Assembly (NCBI RefSeq): GCF_022846255.1
Contig: NZ_AP025682.1
DNA from: Escherichia coli
GTDB lineage: Bacteria > Pseudomonadota > Gammaproteobacteria > Enterobacterales > Enterobacteriaceae
DNA: 64,000 nucleotides
Reading direction: 5' to 3' (one strand)
Shown: in pieces, positions 5,435 to 34,570 of the stretch
Numbering within the stretch: position 1 is the stretch's first letter
Layout of the letters: every line of letters starts with the position of its first letter
Made by a program: the position numbers and the translations under genes
Notes under the pieces: model-generated
Database searches by the model: none
What the model was told of the DNA's origin: nothing
What the model saw: only the letters and a program-made list of their open reading frames with translations

Positions 5435-5495
5435 TGAAAAGGTGTAACCCGCCATCCATGGAAAAACCAGGCGCTGGTTATCAGATATTAAAAAG

Positions 5496-8966: not shown

Positions 8967-8967
8967 T

Positions 8968-9819: not shown

Positions 9820-9828
9820 GGAACCACC

Positions 9829-10209: not shown

Positions 10210-10227
10210 ATTTGCACCAGCTTCCAG

Positions 10228-10257
10228 GCCGGATGATAAGGCGCAGCCGCATCCGGC
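10228..10257. repeat. REP-like palindrome (GCCGGATG...CATCCGGC) between hpaF and hpaH
   Basis: Inverted repeat of GCCGGATG arms resembling enterobacterial REP elements. Confidence 0.4.
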
Positions 10258-10276
10258 AATGCCACAGGATATCGCT

Positions 10277-11080: not shown

Positions 11081-11090
11081 GGAGAGAACG

Positions 11091-11879
11091 ATGGAAAACA
11101 GTTTTAAAGCGGCGCTGAAAGCAGGCCGCCCGCAGATCGGATTATGGCTGGGGCTAAGTAGCAGCTACAGCGCAGAGTTACTGGCCGGAGCAGGATTCGA
11201 CTGGTTATTGATCGACGGTGAGCACGCGCCGAACAACGTGCAAACCGTGCTCACCCAGCTACAGGCGATTGCGCCCTACCCCAGCCAGCCGGTAGTGCGC
11301 CCATCCTGGAACGATCCGGTGCAAATCAAACAACTGCTGGATGTCGGTACACAAACCTTACTGGTGCCGATGGTACAAAACGCCGACGAAGCCCGTGAAG
11401 CGGTACGCGCCACCCGTTATCCCCCCGCCGGTATTCGTGGTGTGGGCAGTGCGCTGGCCCGCGCCTCGCGCTGGAACCGTATTCCGGATTACCTGCAAAA
11501 AGCCAACGATCAAATGTGCGTGCTGGTGCAGATCGAAACTCGTGAGGCAATGAAGAACCTACCGCAGATTCTGGACGTGGAAGGGGTAGACGGCGTGTTT
11601 ATCGGCCCGGCGGATCTGAGCGCCGATATGGGTTATGCCGGTAATCCGCAGCACCCGGAAGTGCAGGCCGCCATTGAACAGGCGATCGTGCAGATCCGTG
11701 AAGCGGGCAAAGCTCCGGGGATCCTGATCGCCAATGAGCAACTGGCAAAACGCTACCTGGAACTGGGCGCGCTATTTGTCGCCGTCGGCGTTGACACCAC
11801 CCTGCTCGCCCGCGCCGCCGAAGCGCTGGCAGCACGGTTTGGTGCTCAGGCCACCGCCGTGAAGCCCGGCGTGTATTAA
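11091..11879 (+). CDS. hpaI: 4-hydroxy-2-oxo-heptane-1,7-dioate aldolase (HpcH/HpaI aldolase family)
   Basis: 262 aa from [19 protein letters not shown] with GGAGAG RBS; class II aldolase family pattern. Confidence 0.85.
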
Positions 11880-11952
11880 TGCCGGATGCGCTTATCCGGT
11901 TTACAGCAGTACCAAATTGTAGCCGGATAAGGCGTTTGTGCTGCATCCGCCA
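11880..11952. repeat. REP element cluster (BIME-like) downstream of hpaI
   Basis: GCCGGATGCGCTTATCCGG and TAGCCGGATAAGGCG...GCATCCGCC palindromic units typical of REP sequences. Confidence 0.5.
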
Positions 11953-11996
11953 TAAACCTTGTCGTACCCTACAAAAATCCCATTAGAGGAAGAAAA

Positions 11997-13373: not shown

Positions 13374-13382
13374 GGAACGACG

Positions 13383-14273
13383 ATGTGCGATAGTCAGATT
13401 GCCAATATTGATATCAGCAAAGAGTACGATGAAAGCCTGGGCACGGACGATGTGCATTATCAGTCCTTCGCCCGCATGGCGGCCTTTTTTGGCCGCCATA
13501 TGCTGCCACATCGCCACGAACAGTACTTTCAGATGCATTTCCTCAATAGCGGACAGATTGAGCTACAGCTTGACGATCATCGCTACTCGGTGGAAGCGCC
13601 CCTGTTTGTCCTGACGCCGCCGTCAGTACCTCATGCGTTTATTACGGAGTCTGACGCCGACGGTCATGTGTTGACGGTACGGGAAGATCTGATCTGGCCC
13701 CTGCTGGAAGTTCTTTATCCGGGCACTCGGGAAACCTTCGGCCTGCCGGGGATTTGCCTGTCACTGGCAGATAAACCCGACGAACTGGCAGCGCTGGAAC
13801 ACTATTGGCAACTGATAGAGCGGGAATCGGTAGAACAACTGCCTGGACGGGAACACACCCTGACGCTACTAGCACAGGCAGTATTCACCCTACTGCTGCG
13901 TAATGCAAAACTCGACGACCATGCCGCCAGCGGGATGCGCGGAGAATTAAAACTGTTCCAGCGTTTTAATATGCTGATTGAAAGCCATTTTCATCAGCAC
14001 TGGACGGTACCGGATTACGCTAACGAACTGCATATCACCGAATCACGACTCACCGACATCTGCCGCCGCTTTGCCAACCGTCCGCCAAAACGGTTGATTT
14101 TCGACAGGCAGCTACGAGAAGCCAAGCGGCTGCTGCTGTTTTCTGATAACGCCGTGAACAATATTGCCTGGCAACTCGGTTTTAAGGATCCGGCTTATTT
14201 TGCGCGCTTTTTTAATCGCTTAGTCGGTTGCTCGCCCAGTGCTTATCGCGCCAAAAAAGTACCTGTGACGTGA
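13383..14273 (+). CDS. hpaA: AraC/XylS-family activator of hpaBC
   Basis: 296 aa; C-terminal AraC-type HTH region; immediately upstream of hpaBC. Confidence 0.85.
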   Translation: MCDSQIANIDISKEYDESLGTDDVHYQSFARMAAFFGRHMLPHRHEQYFQMHFLNSGQIELQLDDHRYSVEAPLFVLTPPSVPHAFITESDADGHVLTVREDLIWPLLEVLYPGTRETFGLPGICLSLADKPDELAALEHYWQLIERESVEQLPGREHTLTLLAQAVFTLLLRNAKLDDHAASGMRGELKLFQRFNMLIESHFHQHWTVPDYANELHITESRLTDICRRFANRPPKRLIFDRQLREAKRLLLFSDNAVNNIAWQLGFKDPAYFARFFNRLVGCSPSAYRAKKVPVT

Positions 14274-14523
14274 AAATCCCTTAGCCTTAACGGGAAACCA
14301 GGCACCACCTGCTATTCCCCTTTCTCCGCCTGGAGCAAGGGGATTTAGTAACGTTAAAAATCGCGAAAAGCGACCTCGATCACAAAACCGTACCCGACCT
14401 GAAAAGTACCAGCCATTGTCCCAAAAGTGTCTTCCCGTAATCGCCCCTGCAAGCTTCAATTGAATAACAAAAACAACACACAAAATTAACAATCATATTC
14501 CGATTAATACTGTAGAGGTCGAT

Positions 14524-16086
14524 ATGAAACCAGAAGATTTCCGCGCCAGTACCCAACGTCCGTTCACCGGGGAAGAGTATCTGAAAAGCCTGCAGGATGG
14601 TCGCGAGATCTATATCTATGGCGAGCGAGTGAAAGACGTCACCACTCATCCGGCATTTCGTAATGCGGCAGCGTCTGTTGCCCAACTGTACGACGCGCTG
14701 CACAAACCGGAGATGCAGGACTCTCTGTGTTGGAACACCGACACCGGCAGCGGCGGCTATACCCATAAATTCTTCCGCGTGGCGAAAAGTGCCGACGACC
14801 TGCGCCAGCAACGCGACGCCATCGCTGAATGGTCACGCCTGAGCTATGGCTGGATGGGCCGTACCCCAGACTACAAAGCCGCTTTCGGTTGCGCACTGGG
14901 CGCAAATCCGGGCTTTTACGGTCAGTTCGAGCAGAACGCCCGTAACTGGTACACCCGTATTCAGGAAACTGGCCTCTACTTTAACCACGCGATTGTTAAC
15001 CCACCGATTGATCGTCATTTGCCGACCGATAAAGTGAAAGACGTTTACATCAAGCTGGAAAAAGAGACTGACGCCGGGATTATCGTCAGCGGTGCGAAAG
15101 TGGTTGCCACCAACTCGGCGCTGACTCACTACAACATGATTGGCTTCGGCTCGGCACAAGTGATGGGCGAAAACCCGGACTTCGCACTGATGTTCGTTGC
15201 GCCAATGGATGCCGATGGCGTGAAATTAATCTCCCGCGCCTCTTATGAGATGGTCGCGGGTGCTACCGGCTCGCCATACGACTACCCGCTCTCCAGCCGC
15301 TTCGATGAGAACGATGCGATCCTGGTGATGGATAACGTACTGATCCCGTGGGAAAACGTGTTGATCTACCGCGATTTCGATCGCTGCCGTCGCTGGACGA
15401 TGGAAGGCGGTTTCGCCCGTATGTATCCGCTGCAAGCCTGTGTGCGCCTGGCAGTGAAATTAGACTTCATTACGGCACTGCTGAAAAAATCACTCGAATG
15501 TACCGGCACCCTGGAGTTCCGTGGCGTGCAGGCCGATCTCGGTGAAGTGGTGGCGTGGCGCAACACCTTCTGGGCATTGAGTGACTCGATGTGTTCAGAA
15601 GCAACGCCGTGGGTCAACGGGGCTTATTTACCGGATCATGCCGCACTGCAAACCTATCGCGTACTGGCACCAATGGCCTACGCGAAGATCAAAAACATTA
15701 TCGAACGCAACGTTACCAGTGGCCTGATCTATCTCCCTTCCAGTGCCCGTGACCTGAACAATCCGCAGATCGACCAGTATCTGGCGAAGTATGTGCGCGG
15801 TTCGAACGGTATGGATCACGTCCAGCGCATCAAGATCCTCAAACTGATGTGGGATGCTATTGGCAGCGAATTTGGTGGTCGTCACGAGCTGTATGAAATC
15901 AACTACTCCGGTAGCCAGGATGAGATTCGCCTGCAGTGTCTGCGTCAGGCACAAAGCTCCGGCAATATGGACAAGATGATGGCGATGGTTGATCGCTGCC
16001 TGTCGGAATACGACCAGAACGGCTGGACTGTGCCGCACCTGCACAACAACGACGATATCAACATGCTGGATAAGCTGCTGAAATAA
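14524..16086 (+). CDS. hpaB: 4-hydroxyphenylacetate 3-monooxygenase, oxygenase component
   Basis: 520 aa; matches the two-component flavin-dependent HpaB family in size and operon context. Confidence 0.9.
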   Translation: MKPEDFRASTQRPFTGEEYLKSLQDGREIYIYGERVKDVTTHPAFRNAAASVAQLYDALHKPEMQDSLCWNTDTGSGGYTHKFFRVAKSADDLRQQRDAIAEWSRLSYGWMGRTPDYKAAFGCALGANPGFYGQFEQNARNWYTRIQETGLYFNHAIVNPPIDRHLPTDKVKDVYIKLEKETDAGIIVSGAKVVATNSALTHYNMIGFGSAQVMGENPDFALMFVAPMDADGVKLISRASYEMVAGATGSPYDYPLSSRFDENDAILVMDNVLIPWENVLIYRDFDRCRRWTMEGGFARMYPLQACVRLAVKLDFITALLKKSLECTGTLEFRGVQADLGEVVAWRNTFWALSDSMCSEATPWVNGAYLPDHAALQTYRVLAPMAYAKIKNIIERNVTSGLIYLPSSARDLNNPQIDQYLAKYVRGSNGMDHVQRIKILKLMWDAIGSEFGGRHELYEINYSGSQDEIRLQCLRQAQSSGNMDKMMAMVDRCLSEYDQNGWTVPHLHNNDDINMLDKLLK

Positions 16087-16103
16087 CGCAGCAGGAGGTT
16101 AAG

Positions 16104-16616
16104 ATGCAATTAGATGAACAACGCCTGCGCTTTCGTGACGCAATGGCCAGCCTGTCGGCAGCGGTAAATATTATCACCACCGAGGGCGACGCCGGGCAAT
16201 GCGGGATTACGGCAACGGCTGTCTGCTCGGTCACGGATACACCACCGTCGCTGATGGTGTGCATTAACGCCAACAGTGCGATGAACCCGGTTTTTCAGGG
16301 CAACGGTAAGTTGTGCGTCAACGTCCTCAACCATGAGCAGGAACTGATGGCACGCCACTTCGCGGGCATGACAGGCATGGCGATGGAAGAGCGTTTTAGC
16401 CTCTCATGCTGGCAAAAAGGTCCGCTGGCGCAGCCGGTGCTGAAAGGTTCGCTGGCCAGTCTTGAAGGTGAGATCCGCGATGTGCAGGCGATTGGCACAC
16501 ATCTGGTGTATCTGGTGGAGATTAAAAACATCATCCTCAGTGCAGAAGGTCACGGACTTATCTACTTTAAACGCCGTTTCCATCCGGTGATGCTGGAAAT
16601 GGAAGCTGCGATTTAA
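16104..16616 (+). CDS. hpaC: 4-hydroxyphenylacetate 3-monooxygenase, flavin reductase component
   Basis: 170 aa flavin reductase-like protein directly downstream of hpaB with AGGAGG RBS. Confidence 0.9.
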   Translation: MQLDEQRLRFRDAMASLSAAVNIITTEGDAGQCGITATAVCSVTDTPPSLMVCINANSAMNPVFQGNGKLCVNVLNHEQELMARHFAGMTGMAMEERFSLSCWQKGPLAQPVLKGSLASLEGEIRDVQAIGTHLVYLVEIKNIILSAEGHGLIYFKRRFHPVMLEMEAAI

Positions 16617-16622
16617 GCTCCA

Positions 16623-16658
16623 GCCCCTTCACGTATTCGTCGAAGGGGCATTTTTATT
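16623..16658 (+). terminator. Rho-independent terminator after hpaC
   Basis: GCCCCTTC...GAAGGGGC stem followed by ATTTTTATT run. Confidence 0.6.
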
Positions 16659-16701
16659 GTGATCTCAATCACATATCCACCCGATGAATAATTCTTGCCC
16701 A

Positions 16702-16750
16702 ACCGCTCACCGCCATTCCTGACCGCTTACATCCCTAAAATAACCACTCA
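16702..16750 (+). promoter_or_regulatory. Three direct repeats ACC(G/A)CT(C/T)A spaced about 21 bp upstream of btsT (LytTR-type BtsR/YehT binding motif)
   Basis: ACCGCTCA (16702), ACCGCTTA (16722), ACCACTCA (16743); matches the described YehT/BtsR recognition motif of direct repeats with 13-bp spacer. Confidence 0.55.
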
Positions 16751-20289: not shown

Positions 20290-20592
20290 TTATTTTTTAT
20301 TCTGATCGCGCAGCATCGCTTCACGTAAAATTGCGTTCAGGCGAGTTTGATAGCCTTTACCTGGTCGCTTCAACCATTCCATCACATCAGAATCAATACG
20401 CACCGAGGCCTGAGTTTTCAATGGCCGATAAAACTTACCGCGTTCTGCGTTAGACCATTGCTCATCGCTGGAAGGAGGGATATCACTGTAATCAATCTCT
20501 TCGTCGGATTTATTCGCCAGCGCCTTCAGTTCGGCCTCATGCTGCACATCGAGTGTAGAGGAGGTCCCTCGTTTATGTTTAACCATGCTCAT
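20290..20592 (-). CDS. DUF4415-family protein (BrnA-like putative antitoxin / RHH-like)
   Basis: About 100 aa from MSMVKHKRG with AGAGGAG RBS; sequence SDEEIDYSDIP...VRIDSDVMEWLKRPGKGYQTRLNAILREA matches the DUF4415 pattern as recalled. Confidence 0.65.
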   Translation of the reverse strand: MSMVKHKRGTSSTLDVQHEAELKALANKSDEEIDYSDIPPSSDEQWSNAERGKFYRPLKTQASVRIDSDVMEWLKRPGKGYQTRLNAILREAMLRDQNKK

Positions 20593-20730
20593 AGCGACTC
20601 CTCTCTTTACGATCTGCTTTTCGTGCACTGATGATTCGAATGTTGGAAATAGCATCACGTTTTAGGAAAAGATAGGGAAGTTGATATGAAGGGGCTGGAT
20701 GGCAGCATTGGGACACCATCCAGCACTTAT

Positions 20731-21465
20731 TCAAACCTGATAGCAATCCACCAAAAATGCCATCATTTCACTGGCATCTTTGCTGTGATAAAAGCGCACC
20801 ATTTTGCTGTTGAACTCCAGCGCACGAGCTGCGGGTACACTAATGGGATTGTAACCGTGGCGCATTAACCAGCCGTTCATCATATGGCGACTGGTACGCT
20901 TGTTGCCATCAAAGAAAAACTGAAAATAAGCACCAAATAAAAACATTGCCAGCGCCCCTTCGAATGGTGGCATCTCTTTTATTTGTGCCACACCTGCGGC
21001 GAATATTCGATTCAGTTCAGGTGCACCTGCTTCAGTGGCTGGTGGAAAATGAGCGCCCAGTTCACCGAGATGAACGCGCGCATTGTAATGTAACTCTTCA
21101 CCTTCGCCGCGAAAAACGCCCCACTCCAGCGCCTCATTACGCGCAATAATGCCGTTAAGTAACGTGAACGTTTTCTTATCAAGGTCAAAACGCCCGAATT
21201 GCACAAGTTCAATCAGTTTTTTTGCGCTATCTGCCAGGTTCAACACCTGCTCAGTATCACTGACCTTATGCCCGCCAACAGTGACGCCATCGAGCAACGT
21301 TTTAACTTCAACAAAGGTATAGGGGTTATTTTCCAGTTGCGCGGCATCCCAGACAAACCCAGCCATATGCGTTTTGAAGGTAAATAAGGCTGCGCGCGTA
21401 CCGACAATTTGCATCGCCGGGATGGCATTTGCATTCCAGCTCAGGTCCAGTAGTTTGGTTGTCAT
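20731..21465 (-). CDS. Fic/Doc-fold protein with degenerate active-site motif
   Basis: 244 aa; region FQFFFDGNKRTSRHMMNGWLMRHGY aligns to the Fic motif HPFx(D/E)GNGRxxR but has Gln in place of the invariant His and the Doc-type NKR; AAGGA RBS; 43 bp downstream of GmrSD-like gene. Confidence 0.55.
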   Translation of the reverse strand: MTTKLLDLSWNANAIPAMQIVGTRAALFTFKTHMAGFVWDAAQLENNPYTFVEVKTLLDGVTVGGHKVSDTEQVLNLADSAKKLIELVQFGRFDLDKKTFTLLNGIIARNEALEWGVFRGEGEELHYNARVHLGELGAHFPPATEAGAPELNRIFAAGVAQIKEMPPFEGALAMFLFGAYFQFFFDGNKRTSRHMMNGWLMRHGYNPISVPAARALEFNSKMVRFYHSKDASEMMAFLVDCYQV

Positions 21466-21508: not shown

Positions 21509-23608
21509 TTAAACCATCGCGTTATCCATCTGCTTTTCAAATGCCTGACGAATTAATCCCATCACATAAGGAAGCTCAGAAAGATCGCTGAAACCTATTT
21601 CAACATCGCCATTGCCCCAACGGCCTATATCTGTGACATCTTTAGCCATACATTTTGGGTCAACCAGTTCATGGAATGGCATATTTAGTGATAAACGTAA
21701 GCGACTTTTTTGCGGCACCACATCAACAAAATTCGTCTCCGCTTTGAAGGCAACATAGAGCTTCAATATTTCTCGCGTAACCCCAGCGTCCAGCGTCATA
21801 ACGGCATCAGAAAGGCTGTCAAAAAGTACGCGGATGTGCGTACCTTCTTCAAGTTGCGGGAAATCAGCAAGGACATATCCCGTTCCTCGTTCAACGACAG
21901 TGCGATAACGAGCCAACACGTCTTCCGAAAGTTTGGGGATCGCCCAGACGTCTATTGCCAGCTCGGACAGACGTTCCGCTCTCTTTTGTATCGCTGCACG
22001 ATCCCATATTTCACATTGCCCTAACCCCGTGTTCAGGCGTAATGGACTTTCCTTAAAGCCACCTTTTATATCTCGTTTCTTCGCAAATGGACGGTCGCTG
22101 TAGCTTGAGTTATAGCCAGTTAACGTTAAATTACCCAACGTATGGAGCCACTTTTTATGGATACGCTTCCATTCCGGACCAAGGTCATCGCGCCACTTCA
22201 CCGATAAATTAGGGTTCTGCGGCATGATATGTTCAATCGTATAAGTGTCAACATAGACCCGTTCTTTACGATCGTGGTTTTCAAATCTGCGTAGCCAATA
22301 GCTGCGATTACGGAAGTTGTAGAGATCGCGAGTTTTCAGTTCACGTTGAAATTCATCATCATCCGGGAAACGACGGTAGGAAGGCAGATCCAGCAAATGC
22401 GCCGCAATGCTCTCCAGATAACGCTCTTTATCCAGCACTTTGTAAAACGTAGCGAAGGTTTTAGTAAATGAGTTGGTGGGAATTGCACAGACTGCGCGCC
22501 GGAAGATATACGACTCAATTAAACGCGTGGCACCTAAAAAATCCGCGGCAGAAAGGATCCCCTGTTTATAGTCGTGATAAAGCACCAACAGGAACGGCCA
22601 TGCAGCATCAACTTTCAGTTCCCGCAGATCCTGAAACGCCATCTTTAAGGTTTTATCCTTTTCGCTATCCAGCGCCATCGCACAAAAATAGTCAGCAAAC
22701 GTACGAATATCCGCAACCAGCGCCTCCATCCCGCTATCTATTACGCCAGGTTTTCGCGCATAGCGTTTAAAGGCTTCATAGACATCACCAATTCGCGGAA
22801 TCTCACCTGTTTTTACCGTCAGGTAATTACGCATAAAACTGTCGAAATAGTCAGTGTATCCCTTCTGACCAAACGCCAGCTCCATGGGCCGCCAGTAATC
22901 GTCGTACAGTTGGCTTTGATGTTCTGGCTCCAGCCCCATCAAAACATAGTTGCGTACTAGATCCGCCTGACTCAGCGCTTTTCCTGTAGAGTTCATGCTT
23001 TCGAAGATAAGTTGCGGATTATCCTGACCGCGATTCAAGGCGACATCCACAATCAGCAGTTTTGAAAGGCCCTGACATAACGCGGTGAAATTGCCGTGGA
23101 GTTTGCCTATTTGCTCATGGAAAAACTCAAAATTCTCTTTCACGCGTAGAGAGCAATTTTCTGCCAGCGGTTTTTGTCTAATCAATGCCAGCAGGCTTTC
23201 TCTGTCCGTTTGCGTAAGCAGTAACTTAAAACCACGCTCGCCTGATTCATACGGATTGAGCAGATAATAGTTTCGTAATTTCATGGCGGAGAAACCATCC
23301 ATCACCTCGTCATCGCCAAGATGTCTGGACAACGCTTCCAGCAATAACATCGCCGTTGTCAGGCGTTGCTGACCGTCAATCACCAGTAATGGCGAAATCC
23401 CCGAAACCTGATATAGGCCCTGTTCGATATACACCACCGAGCCGATGAAATGCGCCGGGATATCATCACGCTGCCCGGCACGTATTACATCGTCCCAGAG
23501 CTGGCGGCACTGTTCCTCTGACCATGAGTAAGTACGCTGATAAATGGGAATAACGAATTGCTGAGAGCGTTTTAGAAAATCGAGTAATCGGGCTTCGGTG
23601 GCTTTCAT
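21509..23608 (-). CDS. GmrSD-like Type IV restriction endonuclease candidate (DUF262 ParB-like NTPase + DUF1524 His-Me finger nuclease)
   Basis: 699 aa; N-terminal IPIYQRTYSW and DGQQRLT motifs (DUF262); C-terminal EHIMPQ...GNLTLTGYNSSYS motif (DUF1524); AGGAG RBS. Confidence 0.75.
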   Translation of the reverse strand: MKATEARLLDFLKRSQQFVIPIYQRTYSWSEEQCRQLWDDVIRAGQRDDIPAHFIGSVVYIEQGLYQVSGISPLLVIDGQQRLTTAMLLLEALSRHLGDDEVMDGFSAMKLRNYYLLNPYESGERGFKLLLTQTDRESLLALIRQKPLAENCSLRVKENFEFFHEQIGKLHGNFTALCQGLSKLLIVDVALNRGQDNPQLIFESMNSTGKALSQADLVRNYVLMGLEPEHQSQLYDDYWRPMELAFGQKGYTDYFDSFMRNYLTVKTGEIPRIGDVYEAFKRYARKPGVIDSGMEALVADIRTFADYFCAMALDSEKDKTLKMAFQDLRELKVDAAWPFLLVLYHDYKQGILSAADFLGATRLIESYIFRRAVCAIPTNSFTKTFATFYKVLDKERYLESIAAHLLDLPSYRRFPDDDEFQRELKTRDLYNFRNRSYWLRRFENHDRKERVYVDTYTIEHIMPQNPNLSVKWRDDLGPEWKRIHKKWLHTLGNLTLTGYNSSYSDRPFAKKRDIKGGFKESPLRLNTGLGQCEIWDRAAIQKRAERLSELAIDVWAIPKLSEDVLARYRTVVERGTGYVLADFPQLEEGTHIRVLFDSLSDAVMTLDAGVTREILKLYVAFKAETNFVDVVPQKSRLRLSLNMPFHELVDPKCMAKDVTDIGRWGNGDVEIGFSDLSELPYVMGLIRQAFEKQMDNAMV

Positions 23609-23892
23609 GAATGACTCCTGTCAAATTGCGCTGGCAAACGGCGTCATTATGCTGCGAATAAAAAATAAAAGTTAGCGTCTTTGTTTCTGCAAAAATACCA
23701 TTCCAGGATAAATCAAAATATATTAAGAAACACCTCAAAACACATTCATTAGAACAATTAATGCTTCCAATATATATTAATAACGCATTGAAAATGATCA
23801 TGTTTTTGATCATCACAACGATAGTTTGATATAACAAAGCATTCACTTCACATTGAATATCCCCCTCTTTTTCAGGGCAAGGAATGCTTTTT

Positions 23893-26238
23893 ATGTCATC
23901 AACTAATTTCAGCCAGATTGCAGCCTTCCTGTGGTCTGTCGCCGACCTGTTACGCGGCGATTTTAAACAATCACAATATGGGCGAATTATTCTCCCTTTC
24001 ACTCTTCTTCGTCGTCTGGAATGCGTACTCGAAACAACGAAAGACGCGGTCATTGCTGAGGCGCAAAAAGTAAAAGCCATGAAACTACCAGAGGACGCTC
24101 AGGAGAAAATGATCCTGCGGGCGACCAATGGCCTCACGTTCTTTAACGCCTCAGCGATGGACCTCAGCAAAATGGGGCAAAATGGCATACAGGACAACCT
24201 GGAAAACTATATCCAGTCGTTCTCTTCGGATGCCCGAGAAATTTTCGAACACTTCAAGTTCAGCGAATTTGTCGGGCAGCTCGCTGATGCGAACTTACTG
24301 TTCAAAGTGGTGCAAATATTCGCTAAAGCAGATTTATACCCCGGGCGCGTCACCAACCACGACATGGGGCTGGTGTTTGAGGAGCTGATCCGACGTTTTG
24401 CAGAGAGTTCTAACGAAACCGCCGGGGAACACTTTACCCCGCGTGATATAGTCAATCTGACCACCTCGCTGGTGTTTTTCGATGATGATGATGCACTCAA
24501 TAAAGACGGCATCATCCGCACCATTTACGACCCAACAGCAGGAACCGGCGGCTTTCTCTCTTCCGGCATGGAGTACGTCCACAAACAAAACCCCAATGCC
24601 GTGATGCGCGCGTTTGGTCAGGAGTTAAACCCGGAATCCTACGCCATCTGCAAAGCCGACATGCTGATTAAGGGCCAGGACGTCAGCCTTATCAAACTCG
24701 GCAACACCCTTTCCAACGATCAACTCCCCACAGAAAAATTCGATTACATGCTCTCTAACCCACCTTTCGGCGTGGACTGGAAAAAGATCGAAGGCGACAT
24801 CAACGACGAGCACAAACTCAAAGGTGCTGATGGCCGCTTTGGCCCCGGCCTGCCCCGCGTCTCCGACGGTTCGTTGCTGTTTCTGCTGCACCTGATCAGC
24901 AAAATGCGCGATGCCAAAAGCGGTGGTGGGCGGATCGGCATCATTCTTAATGGCTCTCCGTTATTCACCGGCGGCGCGGGCAGCGGTGAAAGCGAGATCC
25001 GCCGCTACATTCTGGAAGCGGATTTGCTGGAAGGCATTATCGCCCTGCCCACCGACATGTTTTACAACACCGGTATCGCTACCTATGTGTGGATTTTGTC
25101 GAATAAAAAAGCGCCAGAGCGCAAGGGCAAAGTCCAGCTTATCGACGCTAGCAACCTGTGCGGCAAGATGCGTAAATCGCTGGGGTCAAAACGCAATATT
25201 CTCGGGGAGGAGGATATTGGTTTAATCACCCGCACGTTTGGCGATTTCGAATTCGTTGCCACCACCACGCTTGCGGCGTTAGGCCTGGAGAAAGCACCCG
25301 AACAAAAATCCAGCCGGGGACGCCAGCCCGCAACAACCAAAACCGAGGCGGCAAAAACCTTTGCCAGCAAAGTCTTTCACAGCACCGAGTTTGGCTATCG
25401 TCGCATCACCGTTGAACGCCCGTTACGCCTGTCGGCTCAGATCACCGATGACGCCATTGCCACATTGCTCTTTGCGCCGAAGCCGTTTAACGCTCCGATG
25501 GCGCAACTGTATGACGCCTTTGCTTTCCAGTGGCAGGACGGTAATTACGGCGACTTAACAGAGATAGAAAGTGAAGCCCGCGCCATTCTTAAAGCCGATT
25601 TTAGCGAGCTGAAAGAGAAGCAAATTAAAGATCTGCTCGACAGCAAATTATGGCTGGTCCAGCGCGGATTAATGGAAAAAGCGCGGCGTATTCAGGCGGC
25701 GATGGGTATGCAGGCGGGCGGCAAAGATACCGTTAGCAATGACTTTAATCAGTTCCAGTTGACGCTGAAAGAGGCGTTCAAAACCGCAGGCGTGAAGCTG
25801 GATGCGAAAGAGAACAAGCAGTTTATTGATGCCATTACCCGCAAAAACCCGGACGCCGAGCCGGTAGTCAGCAAGGTACTGAAAGAAGCGGCCCAACCGC
25901 TGTATGGCGCGTGTGAGTACAACGGAAAGGTTGTGGAGTTTGAGCCGGATGGCGACCTGCGTGATAACGAGAATGTGCCGTTAAATCCGGCGGTATCTAC
26001 CAGCGAGTTGATCGAGGGTTACTTCAAAGCAGAAGTGTTACCGCACGCCGCGGATGCGTGGATTAACGCCGATAAACGCGATGCGAAAGATGGGGATATC
26101 GGGATTGTGGGGTATGAAATTCCGTTTAATCGCCATTTTTATGTTTATACACCGCCGCGACCGTTGGAGGAGATTGATGCTGATTTGGATGCGGTAAGCG
26201 CTGAGATTATGAAACTGTTGCAGGAGGTACATTCCTGA
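23893..26238 (+). CDS. hsdM: Type I restriction-modification DNA methyltransferase subunit M (with long C-terminal extension)
   Basis: About 781 aa; motif [11 protein letters not shown] and motif IV NPPFG present; start taken at second ATG (23893) with AAGGA RBS; stop overlaps hsdS start. Confidence 0.9.
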
Positions 26239-27503
26239 TGGCGGGGTTAAATAAGTATCGGGCGTATCCGGAGTACAAGGATTCTGGGGTGGAGTGGTTG
26301 GGGGAGATACCAGTCCATTGGAATATAAATCGGTTAGGACATTTTTTTGAGGAACGTAGAGAAAAGGTTAGTGATAAGGATTTCCCAGCATTATCAGTCA
26401 CAATGCAAGGGATTGTTCCTCAGCTTGAAACAGCAGCTAAAACGGATGCTGGAGACAATCGTAAATTAGTTTTAAAAGATGATTTTGTAATAAATAGTCG
26501 TTCTGACAGAAAAGGTTCAGCCGGTGTATCTCGGTTAAATGGCTCTGTTTCATTAATTAGCATAGTCATGCAACCAAAAAAAATAAATGTCAATTTTGCC
26601 CATCACCTACTCCGAAGCTATCCCTTCCAGGAAGAGTTTTATCGCTATGGGAAAGGAATCGTAGCAGATCTGTGGAGCACTAATGCCTCCGAGATGAAAA
26701 ATATACTACTCCCTGAAATTCCTGGCAGCGAAAGTGAAAATATTGCAAATTTTCTCAACTATGAAACCGCAAAAATCGATATCCTGATCGAGAAACAACA
26801 ACAACTTATTGAACTGCTGAAAGAAAAACGTCAGGCCGTGATTAGCCATGCGGTGACCAAAGGGCTAAATCCTGATGTGCCGATGAAAGATTCTGGGGTT
26901 GAGTGGTTGGACGAAATCCCTGAACACTGGAGGATATGCAAATTAAAAAACCTAGCTAAAATATGTAATGGACAGGATTATAAACTCGTTCAAGCAGAAA
27001 CCGGTTATCCAGTAATAGGCTTCGGGGGGCAGTTTGCATGGGCGAATACTTTTCTATATGATAAACCATCAGTCCTCTTGGGTAGAAAGGGTACAATTGA
27101 TAAACCATTGTATATAGACAAGGCATTTTGGACCGTCGATACAATGTATTACACGGAAGTATTTGATTGCATTATAGAGAAATATTTATATTATTTAGCA
27201 CTGACAATTCAGTTTAATCGTTATGCAACTAATACCGCACTGCCTAGTATGACTCAAGAACACTTAGGTAATTACTCATTTTCATTGTCATTCAACCTCA
27301 GTGAGCAAAAACTAATAATTAATAGCATTGAAAAATCATTAATTAAAATAGATGCCCTAACCGAAAAACAGTTAAAACAAATCGAACTCCTCAAAGAACG
27401 CCGCACCGCCCTTATCTCCGCCGCCGTCACCGGCAAAATAGATCTCCGCAACTGGACCGCCCCCATCGCCAAAACGGAAGCACCCACGGAGGCCAGCGCA
27501 TGA
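26238..27503 (+). CDS. hsdS: Type I restriction-modification specificity subunit S
   Basis: 421 aa; two AT-rich target-recognition domains separated by conserved repeats (KDSGVEWLGEIPVHW / KDSGVEWLDEIPEHW; LLKEKRQAVIS / LLKERRTALIS); TGATG overlap with hsdM. Confidence 0.85.
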   Translation: MAGLNKYRAYPEYKDSGVEWLGEIPVHWNINRLGHFFEERREKVSDKDFPALSVTMQGIVPQLETAAKTDAGDNRKLVLKDDFVINSRSDRKGSAGVSRLNGSVSLISIVMQPKKINVNFAHHLLRSYPFQEEFYRYGKGIVADLWSTNASEMKNILLPEIPGSESENIANFLNYETAKIDILIEKQQQLIELLKEKRQAVISHAVTKGLNPDVPMKDSGVEWLDEIPEHWRICKLKNLAKICNGQDYKLVQAETGYPVIGFGGQFAWANTFLYDKPSVLLGRKGTIDKPLYIDKAFWTVDTMYYTEVFDCIIEKYLYYLALTIQFNRYATNTALPSMTQEHLGNYSFSLSFNLSEQKLIINSIEKSLIKIDALTEKQLKQIELLKERRTALISAAVTGKIDLRNWTAPIAKTEAPTEASA

Positions 27504-30500
27504 GCAACGACATTACAAAAGAGCTCAACCTGCAAAACGACATCATCGCCCAGATGGTGGAAAAAGGCTGGATTGTCGGCAAAGGTGACGGCTACGACCG
27601 GGAACGTGCGCTATACGCACAAGACGTTCTGCACTTTGTGCAAACCACCCAACCGCAAGAGTGGGAGAAATTCGCCCGCGTTTACCCCAACGACAACGAA
27701 CGCCATTTCCTCGACGCGCTGGTTGCGCAGTTAAAAAAAGCCGACAGCAACGCCACCGACATCCAGACGCGCACCTGGGGTACGCTCGGCGTACTTCGCC
27801 ACGGACTGAAAATCCGCAATGCCCGTTTTTCGCTGTGTCAGTTTAAACCGGAACATAATCTCAACCCGGAAACGCTGGCGCGCTATCAGCAGAATATCTG
27901 CCGTATCGTGCCGGAACTGGTCTACAGCCCATATGCCTCAAATAGCGTCTTTGCAGAAACGGGCGTGAAAGCCAAAAAATGGCGCATCGACCTGGTGCTG
28001 TTTATCAACGGCCTGCCAATTGCCACGCTGGAGCTGAAATCCGAATTCAAACAGGCGGTGCAGAACGCCATTGCGCAGTACAAAAAGACCCGCCTGCCGA
28101 AAGATCCCGCCACCAATAAACCGGAACCGCTGCTGACCTTTAAGCGCGGCGCGCTGGTGCATTTTGCCGTCAGCCAGTATGACGTCTTTATGACCACCAA
28201 ACTCGCGGGTGACAGCACCTTCTTCCTGCCGTTTAACAAAGGCACCAAAGACGGAGGCGCAGGCAACGAGATCCCCGAAGATACCCACCGCTACGCCACC
28301 GATTATCTGTGGAATGAAGTGCTGCTGCCGGACAACTTATTAAAAATCCTCGCCAGTTTTGTCCATTTGCAGATTGAAGAAAAAGAGGACTGGAACGGGC
28401 TGAAAGCGAAGAAAGAGAGCCTGATTTTCCCGCGTTATCACCAGTGGGATGTGGTCAACAAACTGCTGGAGGCCGCAACGGTCGAAGGCACCGGCCATAA
28501 ATACCTGATCCAGCACAGCGCCGGTTCCGGTAAATCGAACTCCATTGCCTGGACCGCCCACCAGCTTTCTCGTCTGTACGACGTGAACGGGGAAAAACAG
28601 TTCCACTCCGTTATCGTGGTGACGGACCGCACGGTGCTGGACGACCAGCTTCAGGACACCATCTGGCAGTTCGAACATGCCGACGGCGTGGTCGGGCGCA
28701 TCAATAACAGAGAGGGCGACGGCTCTAAATCGGAAAAGCTCGCCAACGCGCTGGAAAACTCGCAGCCGATAATCATCGTCACCATCCAGACATTCCCGTT
28801 CGTGCTGAAAGCCATCGAAAACAGCGTCAGCCTGAAGCAGCGTAAATACGCGGTGATTGCCGACGAAGCACACTCCTCGCAGAGCGGTTCTACCGCCCGT
28901 CAGCTTAAAGAAGTGCTGATGAGCGAAGAAATGGATGATGACGTGGTACTGTCGTCAGAAGATATCCTGGATGCGACCATTGCCGCCCGGAAAGGCAGCA
29001 GTAACCTGAACTACTACGCCTTTACCGCCACGCCAAAATCCAAAACCCTCGAACTTTTTGGTCGCCGCCCACGTCCCGATGAACCGGCGTCAAAAACCAA
29101 TAAACCTGAGGCCTTCCACGTCTACTCCATGCGCCAGGCAATCGAAGAAGGCTTTATCCTCGATGTGCTGAAAAACTACACCAACTACAAAGTGGCGTAT
29201 CAGTTGTTGCAAAAGCTGGAAGACAAAGACCGCGAGGTCGATAGCAAACGGGCGAAGATTAAGCTCAACCAGTGGGTGACACTGCACGACCACAATATCT
29301 CGCAGAAGGTGAAGGTGATTGTGGATCACTTCCGCAAACATGTGATGCACCTGCTTGGTGGCCAGGCCAAAGCGATGGTGGTCACCAGTTCACGCAAAGC
29401 CGCTGTGCGCTACAAGCTGGCGTTTGATAAATACATTAGCGAGAACAATTACCAGAAAATCAGCGCGATGGTGGCATTTTCCGGGGAAGTTGAATTCCAG
29501 GAAGGCGACCATAACAGCCTGGCATTGTTAAACCAGAAATTTACTGAAATAAACATGAACCCCGGCCTGAAAGGGCGGGATATGCGCAAAGCCTTCGACA
29601 GCGACGATTATCAGGTGATGTTGGTCGCCAATAAATTCCAGACCGGTTTTGACCAGCCAAAGCTGTGCGCAATGTACGTGGATAAACCCCTCGGTGGCGT
29701 CGAGTGTGTCCAGACGCTTTCCCGCCTGAACCGCACCTATCCGGGCAAAGCGGAATCAGGCACTTTTGTCCTCGATTTTATCAACGATCCGGGCGAGATC
29801 CTCAAGGCATTCCAGCCCTATTACCAGACGGCGGAACTGACCGATGTCAGCGATCCGCAGCAGGTATTCGATCTGTTTGAAAAACTGCGCGCCACGCAGA
29901 TTTTCCAGTGGCATGAAGTCGAGCAGTTCTGCGAGGCATACTTCATCAAAAATAAATCGAATGCGGCGATCAGTAATATCTGCAAACCGGCGGTAGAACG
30001 CTGGAAAAAGCGTTATCTGATGGCGATAGACGCCTATTTGACCGCCAAAGAGATGTTCGAGCGCACCAAAAAAACGGGCGATACGGTGTTAATCACCAAT
30101 GCGGAAAACAGTTTTAAAGCCTGTAAGCAGGAGAAAGATCGCCTGGAAATATTCAAAAAGGATCTCGGCAGCTTTGTTCGCTTTTATGAATTTATGTCGC
30201 AGATCGTCGAGTACGATGACAAAGATCTGGAAAAACTGAGCCTGTTTGCCCGCCATTTGCGTCCGCTGCTGCATGAACAACGTCTGGAAGAGGATGAGGT
30301 TGATCTCAGTAACGTGGAGATCAGTCACTATCGCTTATCGAAAATCCATGAACAAGATTTACGCTTACAGGAAGAAACACCTGACTATACGCTGGATGCA
30401 AGTAATGATATTGGTACGGCAAAAGCGAAAGATAAAAAAGAGGAGTTTTTATCGCAGGTGCTTTCTCGGATGAATGAATTATTCATTAGCGACCATTTGA

Positions 30501-30763
30501 CCGACAAAGATATGATCAGCAATGCTTTTTCGGTGTATAACAAAATAACTGAAAATGAAAATGTTATGACACAAATTAATAATAATCCGCCAGAACAAGC
30601 TATTCTTGGTGATTTCCTCCAGGCAGTTGATAATGCTGTAATGGACAGTAATGACGCTCGACAAGAATTTATGTTGCAATATTTATCCGATCCAGTTCGG
30701 GCAAAGGGCTTTGCTTATCTGATGTTTGATATGCTAACGGGGAAAATTGCTTTGCCAACATGA
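27500..30763 (+). CDS. hsdR: Type I restriction enzyme R subunit (endonuclease/helicase)
   Basis: 1087 aa; N-terminal PD-(D/E)xK-like LELKSE region, Walker A GSGKS, DEAH box VIADEAHSSQ; ATGA overlap with hsdS. Confidence 0.9.
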   Translation: MSNDITKELNLQNDIIAQMVEKGWIVGKGDGYDRERALYAQDVLHFVQTTQPQEWEKFARVYPNDNERHFLDALVAQLKKADSNATDIQTRTWGTLGVLRHGLKIRNARFSLCQFKPEHNLNPETLARYQQNICRIVPELVYSPYASNSVFAETGVKAKKWRIDLVLFINGLPIATLELKSEFKQAVQNAIAQYKKTRLPKDPATNKPEPLLTFKRGALVHFAVSQYDVFMTTKLAGDSTFFLPFNKGTKDGGAGNEIPEDTHRYATDYLWNEVLLPDNLLKILASFVHLQIEEKEDWNGLKAKKESLIFPRYHQWDVVNKLLEAATVEGTGHKYLIQHSAGSGKSNSIAWTAHQLSRLYDVNGEKQFHSVIVVTDRTVLDDQLQDTIWQFEHADGVVGRINNREGDGSKSEKLANALENSQPIIIVTIQTFPFVLKAIENSVSLKQRKYAVIADEAHSSQSGSTARQLKEVLMSEEMDDDVVLSSEDILDATIAARKGSSNLNYYAFTATPKSKTLELFGRRPRPDEPASKTNKPEAFHVYSMRQAIEEGFILDVLKNYTNYKVAYQLLQKLEDKDREVDSKRAKIKLNQWVTLHDHNISQKVKVIVDHFRKHVMHLLGGQAKAMVVTSSRKAAVRYKLAFDKYISENNYQKISAMVAFSGEVEFQEGDHNSLALLNQKFTEINMNPGLKGRDMRKAFDSDDYQVMLVANKFQTGFDQPKLCAMYVDKPLGGVECVQTLSRLNRTYPGKAESGTFVLDFINDPGEILKAFQPYYQTAELTDVSDPQQVFDLFEKLRATQIFQWHEVEQFCEAYFIKNKSNAAISNICKPAVERWKKRYLMAIDAYLTAKEMFERTKKTGDTVLITNAENSFKACKQEKDRLEIFKKDLGSFVRFYEFMSQIVEYDDKDLEKLSLFARHLRPLLHEQRLEEDEVDLSNVEISHYRLSKIHEQDLRLQEETPDYTLDASNDIGTAKAKDKKEEFLSQVLSRMNELFISDHLTDKDMISNAFSVYNKITENENVMTQINNNPPEQAILGDFLQAVDNAVMDSNDARQEFMLQYLSDPVRAKGFAYLMFDMLTGKIALPT

Positions 30764-31958: not shown

Positions 31959-33371
31959 ATGACGCGTTATCAACATCTGGCGACTCTACTTGCCGAGCGG
32001 ATTGAGCAAGGGCTGTATCGTCACGGGGAGAAATTGCCGTCGGTGCGCAGCTTAAGTCAGGAGCACGGCGTCAGTATTAGCACCGTGCAGCAGGCGTACC
32101 AGACGCTGGAGACGATGAAGCTCATCACTCCGCAGCCGCGTTCGGGTTATTTTGTCGCACAACGTAAAGCCCAGCCGCCAGTACCGCCGATGACGCGTCC
32201 GGTGCAGCGCCCGGTGGAAATTACCCAGTGGGATCAAGTGCTGGATATGCTGGAGGCGCATAGCGACAGTTCCATTGTTCCGTTAAGTAAAAGCACGCCG
32301 GATGTCGAAACGCCCAGCCTGAAACCGCTGTGGCGGGAGCTAAGCCGGGTGGTGCAGCATAATCTGCAAACCGTTCTCGGTTATGACTTGTTAGCCGGTC
32401 AGCGAGTGTTGCGAGAGCAGATTGCCCGCCTGATGCTCGACAGCGGCTCGGTGGTCACCGCCGATGACATCATTATCACCAGCGGCTGCCATAACTCGAT
32501 GTCGCTGGCGTTAATGGCGGTATGTAAACCGGGCGATATTGTCGCAGTCGAATCCCCCTGTTATTACGGTTCAATGCAGATGCTGCGCGGTATGGGCGTG
32601 AAAGTGATTGAAATCCCAACCGATCCAGAAACTGGCATCAGCGTTGAAGCGCTGGAACTGGCGCTGGAACAGTGGCCGATTAAAGGCATCATTCTGGTGC
32701 CAAACTGTAATAATCCGCTGGGATTTATTATGCCGGACGCACGCAAACGGGCCGTTCTCTCTCTCGCTCAGCGTCATGATATTGTGATTTTTGAAGATGA
32801 TGTCTACGGCGAACTGGCGACGGAGTATCCGCGCCCGCGGACCATTCATTCCTGGGATATCGACGGGCGAGTGCTGCTGTGCAGCTCGTTCAGTAAAAGT
32901 ATTGCACCTGGCCTGCGCGTGGGTTGGGTCGCACCGGGGCGTTATCACGATAAACTGATGCATATGAAATACGCCATCAGCAGCTTTAATGTGCCGTCCA
33001 CGCAAATGGCGGCGGCAACGTTTGTGCTGGAAGGTCACTATCATCGCCATATCCGGCGGATGCGGCAGATCTATCAGCGCAATCTGGCACTTTATACCTG
33101 CTGGATACGGGAATATTTTCCCTGCGAAATCTGTATTACGCGCCCGAAAGGCGGATTTTTACTGTGGATAGAATTGCCTGAACAGGTCGATATGGTCTGC
33201 GTCGCGCGGCAGCTGTGCCGCATGAAAATCCAGGTGGCAGCAGGCTCGATTTTCTCAGCTTCCGGCAAATACCGTAATTGTCTGCGCATCAACTGCGCTT
33301 TGCCGCTCAGCGAAACCTATCGCGAAGCACTGAAGCAAATTGGCGAAGCCGTGTATCGGGCAATGGAATGA
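31959..33371 (+). CDS. yjiR: MocR-family transcriptional regulator (GntR HTH + PLP-dependent aminotransferase-like domain)
   Basis: 470 aa; N-terminal GntR-type HTH, C-terminal fold-type I aminotransferase-like region. Confidence 0.85.
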   Translation: MTRYQHLATLLAERIEQGLYRHGEKLPSVRSLSQEHGVSISTVQQAYQTLETMKLITPQPRSGYFVAQRKAQPPVPPMTRPVQRPVEITQWDQVLDMLEAHSDSSIVPLSKSTPDVETPSLKPLWRELSRVVQHNLQTVLGYDLLAGQRVLREQIARLMLDSGSVVTADDIIITSGCHNSMSLALMAVCKPGDIVAVESPCYYGSMQMLRGMGVKVIEIPTDPETGISVEALELALEQWPIKGIILVPNCNNPLGFIMPDARKRAVLSLAQRHDIVIFEDDVYGELATEYPRPRTIHSWDIDGRVLLCSSFSKSIAPGLRVGWVAPGRYHDKLMHMKYAISSFNVPSTQMAAATFVLEGHYHRHIRRMRQIYQRNLALYTCWIREYFPCEICITRPKGGFLLWIELPEQVDMVCVARQLCRMKIQVAAGSIFSASGKYRNCLRINCALPLSETYREALKQIGEAVYRAME

Positions 33372-33613: not shown

Positions 33614-34570
33614 TTAGTACTCGATCCATGGATCGCGCTTGCTTTCAGGCAAGGGCTGATCTAATGCCTGCATTTGCTCTGCCGAAAGTCCGGTATATCG
33701 TTGTATCCATTCAGGATCCGCCCCATTCTGCAACAACAATCGGAGGAGGCTCTTTTCCCCTTCTTCTTTCCCTTCTTTCCTCCCCCTCTCCCTTCCCAAT
33801 AGCCATCCATCATTATGAATTCGCTCTGCAATCGTCATTATTCGCTCCCTGTGTTGTGGCATTCGACTGGTTAGTTCGCTGATAAACTCTTTAAAACTCG
33901 CTTCATCGCCAGCCAGTAAAATGTAATTTAACAGCGCAGTTATCTGGCTGTCATTAGCACACTCTGTAACCAGTAATACTACCAGTTGGTCAATAAGCCC
34001 CATCAGATCGCGCTGGCGAATATGCTTTTGGATCAACTCCAACAGGGCGACTCTGCGATGCTGCACAATCTCGTCGTCTGGCACGACAGTGATATCCACC
34101 AGCGGGAACGCGGCGGTATAAAGCTTCCGTGCGGTAGTTGGGTCGGCAAATTCGTCCAGCCAGCACAAAGACCAGGGATAAGGGCTACGGCTACCGTGAT
34201 AAAACAGCATCGGGATGACCAGCGGTAGCTGCCGGCGTTTATCATGTTCGATATGGCGCTGCATCACCGCCATGGAATATCGCATCAGACGAAAGGCCAT
34301 ATGAATATCCTCACGGCTCTGATGTTCAATCACTACATAAATATAGCCATCGCCTTCACGGGTCTTTACCGACCACAGAATATCGGAATGTAGCGCCCGC
34401 AATTTTTCATCGACAAAGCTGGCGGATTCCAGTTTTAAGCTATCGAGATCGCACAGTTCACGTAAATCTTTGGGTAAGTGGATCTCCATAAAATCCCGCG
34501 CGGTGTCAGAGTGTGTGAGAAAGGATTTAAATAATGCGTCATGCGGCGTGCTGGTCGTAAAGTTTGTCAT
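33614..34570 (-). CDS. rpnD: Rpn-family recombination-promoting nuclease (PD-(D/E)xK, transposase_31-like)
   Basis: 318 aa starting [18 protein letters not shown] typical of YhgA/Rpn proteins; position corresponds to yjiP/yjiQ of E. coli K-12. Confidence 0.75.

Follow-up and report, generated by a model that had tools for sequence, protein, structure and literature searches.

Dam sites upstream of hsdM in a variant Escherichia coli immigration control region: a conserved GATC block and a tentative case for methylation-sensitive promoter-proximal DNA

Upstream of hsdM, the first gene of a type I restriction-modification (R-M) operon of Escherichia coli, two Dam sites (GATC-1 and GATC-2) were found at a short distance from each other. 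We propose, with a probability of about 0.4, that hsdMSR has functional promoter-proximal DNA which includes these GATCs, and that their methylation state modulates transcription modestly and transiently. The sites and their location are directly visible in the sequence. Comparison of related loci revealed a conserved block which contains one of them, an enrichment of GATC upstream of hsdM and a turnover of GATC positions. The place of the promoter and any effect of methylation or of SeqA are inferred. Because the conserved 9-mer holds a GATC and GATC is about four-fold enriched, at least one of the two sites is probably functional and not incidental. On the sequence evidence, Dam-dependent control of hsdM is plausible.

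The sites were located in a window of 64 kb, which is the whole stretch of DNA that was analyzed. The flanking core genes (tsr and the TRAP transporter genes) share 99.3% identity with E. coli strain A20, which identifies the host as E. coli; the stretch from btsT to hsdM is 97.7% identical to the same strain. E. coli is a Dam+ organism, and the dam gene itself lies outside the window. The flanking genes were identified by Pfam and by E. coli RefSeq annotation (Table 1). The operon belongs to a variant immigration control region (ICR) of E. coli; the ICR is a variable defence island bounded by yjiA and yjiN. The same intergenic region was present in 114 of 5,426 complete E. coli genomes, in all cases on the chromosome, and an identical 48-mer around the sites was found in 96 of these 114 genomes. 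ICR type I systems with adjoining GmrSD homologues have already been described (PMC4437046, PMC12707154). The operons of these studies resemble the present one in their position in the yjiA-yjiN island and in having a type I hsd operon as neighbour of a GmrSD-family type IV enzyme; the two studies cover gene content, not promoter elements.

Table 1: Coordinates of the hsdM upstream region, its neighbouring genes and its candidate elements (positions refer to the window).
Feature	Position	Strand	Remarks
BrnA-like gene	20290-20658	-	
Fic-like gene	20731-21465	-	
GmrSD-family type IV restriction enzyme gene	21509-23608	-	GmrSD_N, GmrSD_C, DUF5655; divergent from hsdM; 699 aa
AT-rich divergent intergenic region GmrSD-hsdM	23609-23892	.	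284 bp, 32.7% G+C
Candidate -10, model a	23790-23795	+	GAAAAT directly 5' of GATC-1; putative
AAAATGATC block, includes GATC-1	23791-23799	+	sole 9-mer common to four diverged 300-nt hsdM upstream regions
Inverted repeat ATGATCA / TGATCAT	23794-23813	.	7-bp arms, 6-nt spacer; equally a direct repeat
TGATCA hexamer 1	23795-23800	.	GATC-1 at 23796-23799; BclI site; -97 from hsdM ATG
Fur-box-like 19-mer GATGATCAAAAACATGATC	23796-23814	-	14/19 to GATAATGATAATCATTATC; spans both GATCs
Candidate hsdM promoter, model b	23806-23835	+	third-best + strand PWM match
TGATCA hexamer 2	23807-23812	.	GATC-2 at 23808-23811; BclI site; -85 from hsdM ATG
Candidate promoter, model d	23826-23831 (TTGATA)		TTGATA, 17 bp, CACATT
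Candidate promoter, model e	23837-23832 (TTGTTA); 23814-23809 (GATGAT)	-	TTGTTA, 17 bp, extended -10 TGtGATGAT
Shine-Dalgarno AAGGA and hsdM start codon ATG	23879-23895	+	AAGGA 23879-23883; ATG 23893-23895
Type I R-M operon hsdM-hsdS-hsdR	23893-30763	+	hsdM 23893-26238, hsdS 26238-27503, hsdR 27500-30763; Pfam, RefSeq annotation

An earlier note on this DNA had described two GATC-bearing TGATCA hexamers, 12 bp apart, about 85 bp upstream of hsdM in an AT-rich region between the divergent hsdM and GmrSD genes. A direct check of the sequence showed that positions 23795-23812 indeed read TGATCA-TGTTTT-TGATCA. The divergent setting was found as described, and the G+C content of the intergenic gap compares with 49.3% for the window. 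The longest hsdM open reading frame begins at 23884, yet the ATG at 23893 is favoured as start codon because AAGGA is found 9 nt before it and because it corresponds to the annotated ATG of the RefSeq orthologue. Therefore, the two GATCs are situated at -97 and -85, in agreement with the reported distance. Their spacing is 12 bp from centre to centre with 8 bp in between. The elements lengthened by one base read ATGATCAT and TTGATCAT, and TGATCAT forms a 7-nt direct repeat with a 12-bp period. Since TGATCA is palindromic, this direct repeat is an inverted repeat as well.

The pattern TGATCA-N6-TGATCA occurred once in the window and in 0 of 100 shuffles, a rarity which is post hoc, since the pattern was defined after being seen. 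The window contains 288 GATCs, corresponding to one per 222 bp. Neighbouring GATCs no more than 12 bp apart were observed 17 times versus 15.1 expected, and three pairs showed a spacing of exactly 12 bp. The pair upstream of hsdM is the sole non-coding one among the 17 close pairs; for close non-coding pairs we estimated an expectation of about 0.6 from 18 non-coding GATCs in 6,543 bp. For the window alone, 2 GATCs were counted in the 160 nt before hsdM versus 0.68 expected (P = 0.14). Thus, the pair is real, yet within chance for the window taken alone. These counts are in line with both GATCs being incidental Dam sites in ordinary AT-rich promoter or upstream DNA, fully methylated, with an hsdM expression that is indifferent to Dam. 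This is the alternative that survives best and it has to be taken seriously. Most GATCs in E. coli promoters have no known regulatory effect.

A scan for HsdM in one genome per species yielded 80 loci with 67-96% protein identity. Their upstream regions belong to unrelated types: in one of them another gene abuts hsdM, a second one (the L012-type relatives) carries the conserved extended -10 TGTATAAT, and a third one resembles the window. Extra window-like copies came from metagenome contigs, which were scanned without bias for a degenerate pattern derived from the first hsdM codons. In the plasmid collection only distant HsdM relatives (65-70% identity) were present, and informative upstream regions were not found there. 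The window-like type comprises four lineages, namely E. coli, Pseudocitrobacter (L008, L098), Citrobacter A (L009, L097, L105) and Citrobacter B (L023, L101). The block AAAATGATC is what their upstream regions have in common (Table 1); a shared 8-mer among four upstream regions was obtained in 0.05% of shuffles. That the sole conserved 9-mer includes a GATC argues against incidental sites.

The left neighbour of hsdM is a GmrSD gene in E. coli and Pseudocitrobacter. It differs in Citrobacter, where a NERD/UvrD-like helicase gene (L009) or other open reading frames (L023) are found. Since the block stays when the left neighbour changes, it is tied to hsdM and not to GmrSD. The earlier note had proposed that the sites could couple defence-island expression to replication or hemimethylation; a shared switch that includes GmrSD is not supported, as the Citrobacter loci have another upstream neighbour.

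In the relatives the GATC is located at -84 (L008, L009) or -88 (L023, L101) from the ATG, compared with -85 and -97 in the window. The alignments disagree on its orthologue: by position the shared GATC corresponds to GATC-2, by sequence to GATC-1. An extra stretch of about 10-12 nt with a second TGATCAT in E. coli would be consistent with both alignments, and in one of them (A4) GATC-2 falls into a stretch of about 10 nt that is unique to the E. coli type. A related cluster, GGGGATCATTTT...TTTTTGATGATCAC...GGAAAATGATCATCAAG, was detected in Kluyvera (L013). This cluster and hsdM are about 670 bp apart, with a convergent ORF of 169 aa (weak HTH_3 match) between them. Because of this distance, the block should not be regarded as the hsdM promoter in every genome. 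A weak HTH-like ORF was confined to L010/L013-type relatives.

Most lineages carry two or three GATCs in all, and the additional ones are found at non-homologous positions. L009-type regions contain three AAA(T/C)GATC sequences at -134, -117 and -84, and L008-type regions contain an inverted GGATCATTT at -137. In Rahnella (L032) one GATC is found at -97 and a second one, in the form TAATATGATC, at -78, and the L023/L101 lineage has one GATC only. When the 160-nt regions before hsdM from five lineages were taken together, 10 GATCs were counted versus 2.4 expected, an approximately four-fold enrichment that none of 2,000 dinucleotide-preserving shuffles attained. When the shared GATC was counted once, 6-7 events remained (P = 0.004-0.027). 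Both this enrichment and the recurrence of additional GATCs at non-homologous positions speak against incidental sites, and the pattern resembles a turnover of sites with selection acting on their number. The spacings between GATCs differ between the lineages (12, 16, 17, 19, 33, 38 and 53 bp) and share no common helical phase; lineages other than E. coli have one to three GATCs with spacings of 16-53 bp. As judged from the sequences, this variability speaks against a conserved geometry of the SeqA or dimer-operator type. The upstream regions of other HsdM-family branches are free of GATC. The fact that such branches possess a clear extended -10 TGTATAAT with no nearby GATC is in line with an incidental origin of the sites.

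Variation within the E. coli type was analyzed in 24 sequences (eight genome haplotypes and sixteen metagenome copies). The GATC-1 core was kept in all 24. The base on its 5' side is changed from T to C in L092 (CGATCA), and the base on its 3' side from A to G in GF60, L093 and L109 (TGATCG). An invariant core between two variable flanking bases is not what incidental sites would suggest. The diversity of the E. coli type is too low for decisive statistics: by our own arithmetic, three substitutions miss four core positions of ten with a P of about 0.2. GATC-2 is absent in E. coli GF4-3 (GATT) and in the metagenome locus L102 (TATT), and in both the next 10 nt after the lost site are replaced too. 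According to this comparison, the TGATCA hexamer is unconstrained and the pair is not obligatory, because the flanks of GATC-1 vary and GATC-2 was lost in two haplotypes. The lack of conservation of TGATCA and the dispensable GATC-2 favour incidental sites. The idea of paired GATCs in a promoter, as put forward in the earlier note, is partly supported: a block with a GATC is conserved and GATC is enriched, yet the pair and the TGATCA hexamer are specific to E. coli.

A scan of positions 23500-24000 for consensus promoters and terminators called nothing. Our own PWM scan gave at least four weak, mutually exclusive promoter candidates on both strands (Table 1). The promoter position cannot be fixed from sequence. 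For model a, counterparts of the putative -10 were found as TAAAAT-GATC in L008, L023 and L101 and as TAATAT-GATC in L032, with poor -35 hexamers in these relatives. Model b combines a -35 TTGATC (23806-23811), which holds GATC-2, with an 18-bp spacer and the extended -10 TGaTATAAC (23827-23835). A TAnAAn element resembling this -10 is found in L008, L009, L023 and L101, equally far from the ATG; the final T of the -10 is absent in the window and in L009. With models a, b and e a GATC would be inside the DNA contacted by RNA polymerase, while with model d the sites would be located about 40-55 bp upstream of the transcription start. Relative to the promoter hexamers, GATC-2 lies in TTGATC and GATC-1 follows GAAAAT, both of them weak and competing PWM candidates. 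The conserved letters could just as well be a -10, or an A-tract together with the TGA from a -35 hexamer, which would again leave the GATCs incidental.

Two further candidates were rejected. Homology to the TGTATAAT promoters of the L012-type relatives seemed to be indicated by an alignment of TATAAC or GAATAT with TATAAT (by eye and by MAFFT), which lacked profile support: an nhmmer profile of the L012 group gave no match in the window, L008, L009, L023, L101 or L032. The ATG of AAAATGATC was also considered as the start of a leader peptide, which was dismissed by inspection because the shared sequence ends at M-I and a Shine-Dalgarno sequence is absent. The open reading frames from this ATG comprise 7 (L101), 11 (window), 11 (L023) and 18 codons (L009) and 88 aa (L008).

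Regulator binding sites were searched with consensus scans and shuffle controls, and 11 motifs were tried. The best matches to the OxyR 37-mer (11/20), Lrp (12/15), CRP (6/10), FNR (8/10), IHF (8/9) and the pap GATC box (7/10) were no better than shuffles, and scans for the OxyR half-site, the CRP 16-/22-mer, the DnaA box and the H-NS motif gave nothing above shuffles. This result weakens the idea of a switch of the sci1 type, in which Dam and a transcription factor compete at the sites: binding would block methylation, methylation would lower binding, and conditional or heterogeneous ON/OFF expression of the R-M operon would follow. We regard such a switch as improbable. Its best candidate factor is Fur, as the 19-mer GATGATCAAAAACATGATC spans both GATCs. 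A hand count against the extended Fur consensus gave 15/21, and TGATCAT matches the Fur heptamer TGATAAT at 6 of 7 positions. At the sci1 promoter GATCs are found on either side of the -35 and adjacent to the -10, and the Fur-protected GATC-I is a BclI (TGATCA) site inside a weak Fur box of 13/19; the validated Fur boxes there reach only 13/19 and 11/19 (PMC3145626). The type VI secretion promoter sci1 of enteroaggregative E. coli (EAEC) resembles the present locus: both belong to a weapon or defence cluster that E. coli gained by horizontal transfer, and several GATCs are placed no more than about 50 bp from a sigma-70 promoter, which is a candidate one in the present case (PMC3145626). Fur was validated for sci1, whereas the candidate match in the window was reached by 3% of shuffles, which is not significant with 11 motifs tried. 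In addition, the central hexamer of the match is poor. The match is made by the E. coli-specific pair and is absent at the conserved block of the other lineages, where the best Fur matches are 11-13/19 and mostly found at different positions.

Undermethylated regulatory GATCs of Salmonella commonly occur in clusters of 2-4, such as the two non-methylated GATCs of gtr at -69 and -56, 13 bp apart (PMC7708049), which would again be compatible with competition between Dam and a factor. The agn43, gtr, opvAB and pap-family switches are similar to the hsdM upstream region in having close GATCs upstream of a promoter of an enterobacterial accessory locus. They differ in their regulators, since an OxyR or Lrp consensus is absent here. 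The spacing of 12 bp is unlike that of pap (102-103 bp), and small regulator ORFs of the papI/papB type do not flank the region.

Tandem hemimethylated GATCs that are separated by about one turn of the helix are bound by SeqA, which was crystallized on GATCs with 9 bp between them (PMC2691817). [quoted passage not shown] A dense cluster of the SeqA type was not observed, as the 284-bp gap contains only two GATCs; oriC and dnaA, by comparison, have dense GATC clusters, and with many sites per 200-250 bp such clusters prolong hemimethylation. The hsdM-hsdS-hsdR operon includes no small HTH ORF that could encode a C-protein controller. A search of Rfam with positions 23400-24100 gave only a sub-threshold match to an Enterococcus sRNA (21.9 bits versus a cutoff of 44.3 bits). 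In the features tested, the site pair differs from a pap- or OxyR-type switch, a dense SeqA cluster, a terminator and a C-protein operator.

There is likewise little to recommend a role of the sites on the minus strand, with GATC-2 in the -10 of a leftward GmrSD promoter, or a structural role as hairpin, terminator or boundary marker of the hsd module. Model e provides the candidate promoter for the former, yet the GmrSD start is 187-204 bp away from the two GATCs and the block is kept in Citrobacter loci without a divergent GmrSD gene. For the latter, the predicted RNA fold of the minus strand has -11.5 kcal/mol (z = -3.0 versus shuffles), with an AT-rich stem of which the U's are a part, while the + strand fold (-7.2 kcal/mol, z = -0.7) is at shuffle level. 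An intrinsic terminator at the inverted repeat was not called by the scanner; the stem is AT-rich and no U-tract follows it on the + strand. Moreover, a transcript that needs termination at this place is not expected in E. coli. In L013 an inverted repeat with 10-bp perfect arms and a 10-nt spacer, built from the words GATGATCA and TGATCATC, is found beyond the extra ORF, where the hsd module ends on its left side. Most lineages, in contrast, possess no inverted repeat beyond the GATC palindrome.

Methylation-sensitive promoters are well known from other loci. In dnaA P2, IS10 pIN and the IS50 transposase promoter a GATC is located in or next to the -35 or -10, and the methylation state changes promoter strength. 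Such Dam-sensitive core promoters couple expression to fork passage or to the entry of DNA into a new cell. In these three cases promoter and dam effect were measured, whereas the overlap upstream of hsdM derives from weak competing predictions. For the dnaA promoter a sensitivity to both Dam and SeqA was reported (PMC13337833). If the feature acts at all, it would possibly act like these promoters or like sci1.

We prefer the reading of promoter-proximal DNA with a modest methylation response, which may be pictured as follows. GATC-1 is part of AAAATGATC, which is kept upstream of orthologous hsdM genes despite the divergence of the surrounding DNA. GATC-2 would be an extra TGATCAT copy of the E. 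coli lineage, 12 bp downstream, placed in the best -35-like hexamer TTGATC. With GATCs in or beside its RNA polymerase contacts, the promoter could be read differently depending on the methylation state. The relevant states would be full methylation, hemimethylation (following passage of the replication fork or entry by conjugation) and absence of methylation in DNA that arrives from a dam- donor. SeqA could transiently occupy the hemimethylated GATC pair. The expected outcome would be a modest transient modulation as for dnaA P2, IS10 and IS50, and no ON/OFF switch.

In E. coli, type I restriction is understood to be controlled mainly at the post-translational level, as known for EcoKI and ClpXP, and this classical picture agrees with incidental sites. 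Phase variation of R-M systems is, to our knowledge, caused by repeat slippage and hsdS shuffling, not by Dam. In the literature on Dam, GATC and hsdM promoters, a report of Dam- or GATC-dependent control of an hsd promoter was not found, which also favours the incidental alternative. Among the Salmonella loci with undermethylated GATCs one was examined, and this locus (STM5308) encodes a sugar transporter and is not an hsd gene.

Quite unlikely, in our estimation, is a full Dam-dependent epigenetic control of the ICR type I R-M operon, with the gain of GATCs as a product of selection. Two versions can be envisaged. In the first one, competition of Dam with Fur, as in sci1, or with another protein would create restricting and non-restricting subpopulations. 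In the second one, the promoter would fire differently on hemimethylated or unmethylated DNA, and modification would be timed at the entry into a new host. The recurrent gain of GATC upstream of this hsdM lineage would then reflect selection for Dam control.

If the sites are incidental, the region is an ordinary AT-rich promoter region, and the present analysis documents the promoter-proximal anatomy of one ICR variant only. The cross-species footprint and the GATC enrichment add weight to the Dam hypothesis. If this hypothesis is true, there would be a connection between the host's own orphan methylase and the expression of a defence system that was acquired. Such a link could explain how cassettes of this kind are safely established after transfer and how a clonal population keeps some of its cells open to foreign DNA.

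The tetranucleotide GATC is over-represented in the entire window, with 288 occurrences compared to 241 ± 12.6 in dinucleotide-preserving shuffles, none of which reached 288. The highest GATC density found among the upstream regions of the hsdM family was observed in three Citrobacter loci (L009, L097 and L105), where three AAA(T/C)GATC motifs lie within 58 bp upstream of hsdM and place their GATCs at -134, -117 and -84 (see table). The 9-mer block AAAATGATC, which contains the first GATC of the E. coli promoter region (23796) and is common to four diverged hsdM upstream regions, occurs four times in the window compared to 1.1 expected copies (3 of 100 shuffles reached 4). hsdM itself holds a second exact copy, which lies 315 bp further downstream than the one in the promoter region. 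This intragenic copy codes for the conserved peptide EKMI and is retained in orthologues from Pseudocitrobacter and Citrobacter. Protein conservation may be the simple explanation for its presence.

The longest hsdM open reading frame of the window starts with the ATG at 23884, which is directly adjoined by the Shine-Dalgarno sequence AAGGA (23879-23883). The spacing of this AAGGA suits the in-frame ATG at 23893, the RefSeq-annotated hsdM start in the E. coli orthologues. The distance of about 85 bp between the GATC pair and the hsdM start, given in the earlier note, varies with the start chosen. The gene beginning at 23893 encodes a protein of 781 amino acids. Pfam matches in HsdM were restricted to HsdM_N (residues 9-143) and N6_Mtase (residues 155-453), leaving the C-terminal ~330 residues (about 454-781) without a Pfam match. 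Since tblastn matches cover residues 1-781, this C-terminal part is nevertheless conserved across Gammaproteobacteria.

The intergenic region is intact and keeps both GATCs in E. coli A20, GF60 and A37, in which the GmrSD gene is frameshifted or truncated. In A20 hsdS is also frameshifted or truncated. The decay of the defence genes is independent of the control region. A mechanically predicted minus-strand open reading frame of 204 amino acids covers the whole intergenic region and overlaps the starts of GmrSD and hsdM. It is almost certainly spurious, because the E. coli records carry no annotation for it.

Relative to E. coli A20 the window contains an insertion of ~11 kb, a 4-hydroxyphenylacetate (hpa) catabolic cluster with genes for FAA hydrolase, aldehyde dehydrogenase, LigB dioxygenase, HpcH/HpaI aldolase, an MFS transporter and HpaB. 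Clusters of this type are known from the E. coli strains B, C and W, but not from K-12. At the right-hand end of the immigration control region, the gene for a GntR-aminotransferase (MocR-like) regulator adjoins an Rpn/YhgA-like (Transposase_31) gene. The regulator gene is intact in the window and an interrupted pseudogene in A20.

In another branch of the HsdM family an extended -10 element, TGTATAAT or GATATAAT, is strongly conserved about 32-40 nt before the start codon. The group of L012, L025, L026 and L034 carries an additional conserved block, AAAACGAT-N4-(C/A)ATCAA, upstream of this element. The extended -10 branch is a distinct promoter architecture without GATC.

A related GATC cluster was detected in Kluyvera sichuanensis (L013), where it forms the perfect 10-bp inverted repeat TTGATGATCA-N10-TGATCATCAA. 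It is located ~670 bp upstream of hsdM, immediately beyond the 3' end of a convergent 169-amino-acid open reading frame whose match to HTH_3 is weak (E=0.006) and falls below the Pfam cutoff. Therefore, the GATC-containing motif may be a marker for the left boundary of the hsd module, and not just for a promoter.

Coordinates of the features discussed
Feature	Position	Loci or remarks
hsdM	window 23893-26238	
Intragenic AAAATGATC copy	window 24106-24114	L008/L023 3215-3222; L101 6528-6535
204-aa open reading frame	window 23466-24080 (-)	
hpa insertion	window 5440-16703	
MocR-like regulator and Rpn/YhgA-like genes	window 31959-33371 and 33614-34570	
Decayed genes in A20	L001 10109-12209 and 15333-16105	other strains with decay: L003, L005
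Triple AAA(T/C)GATC, Citrobacter	L009 2863-2920; L097 3923-3980; L105 2275-2332	
GATC cluster, Kluyvera	L013 2270-2345	GATCs at 2278, 2316, 2332
Extended -10 TGTATAAT/GATATAAT	30-50 nt upstream of hsdM	L012, L015, L017, L025, L031, L033, L034, L035, L037, L040, L042, L047
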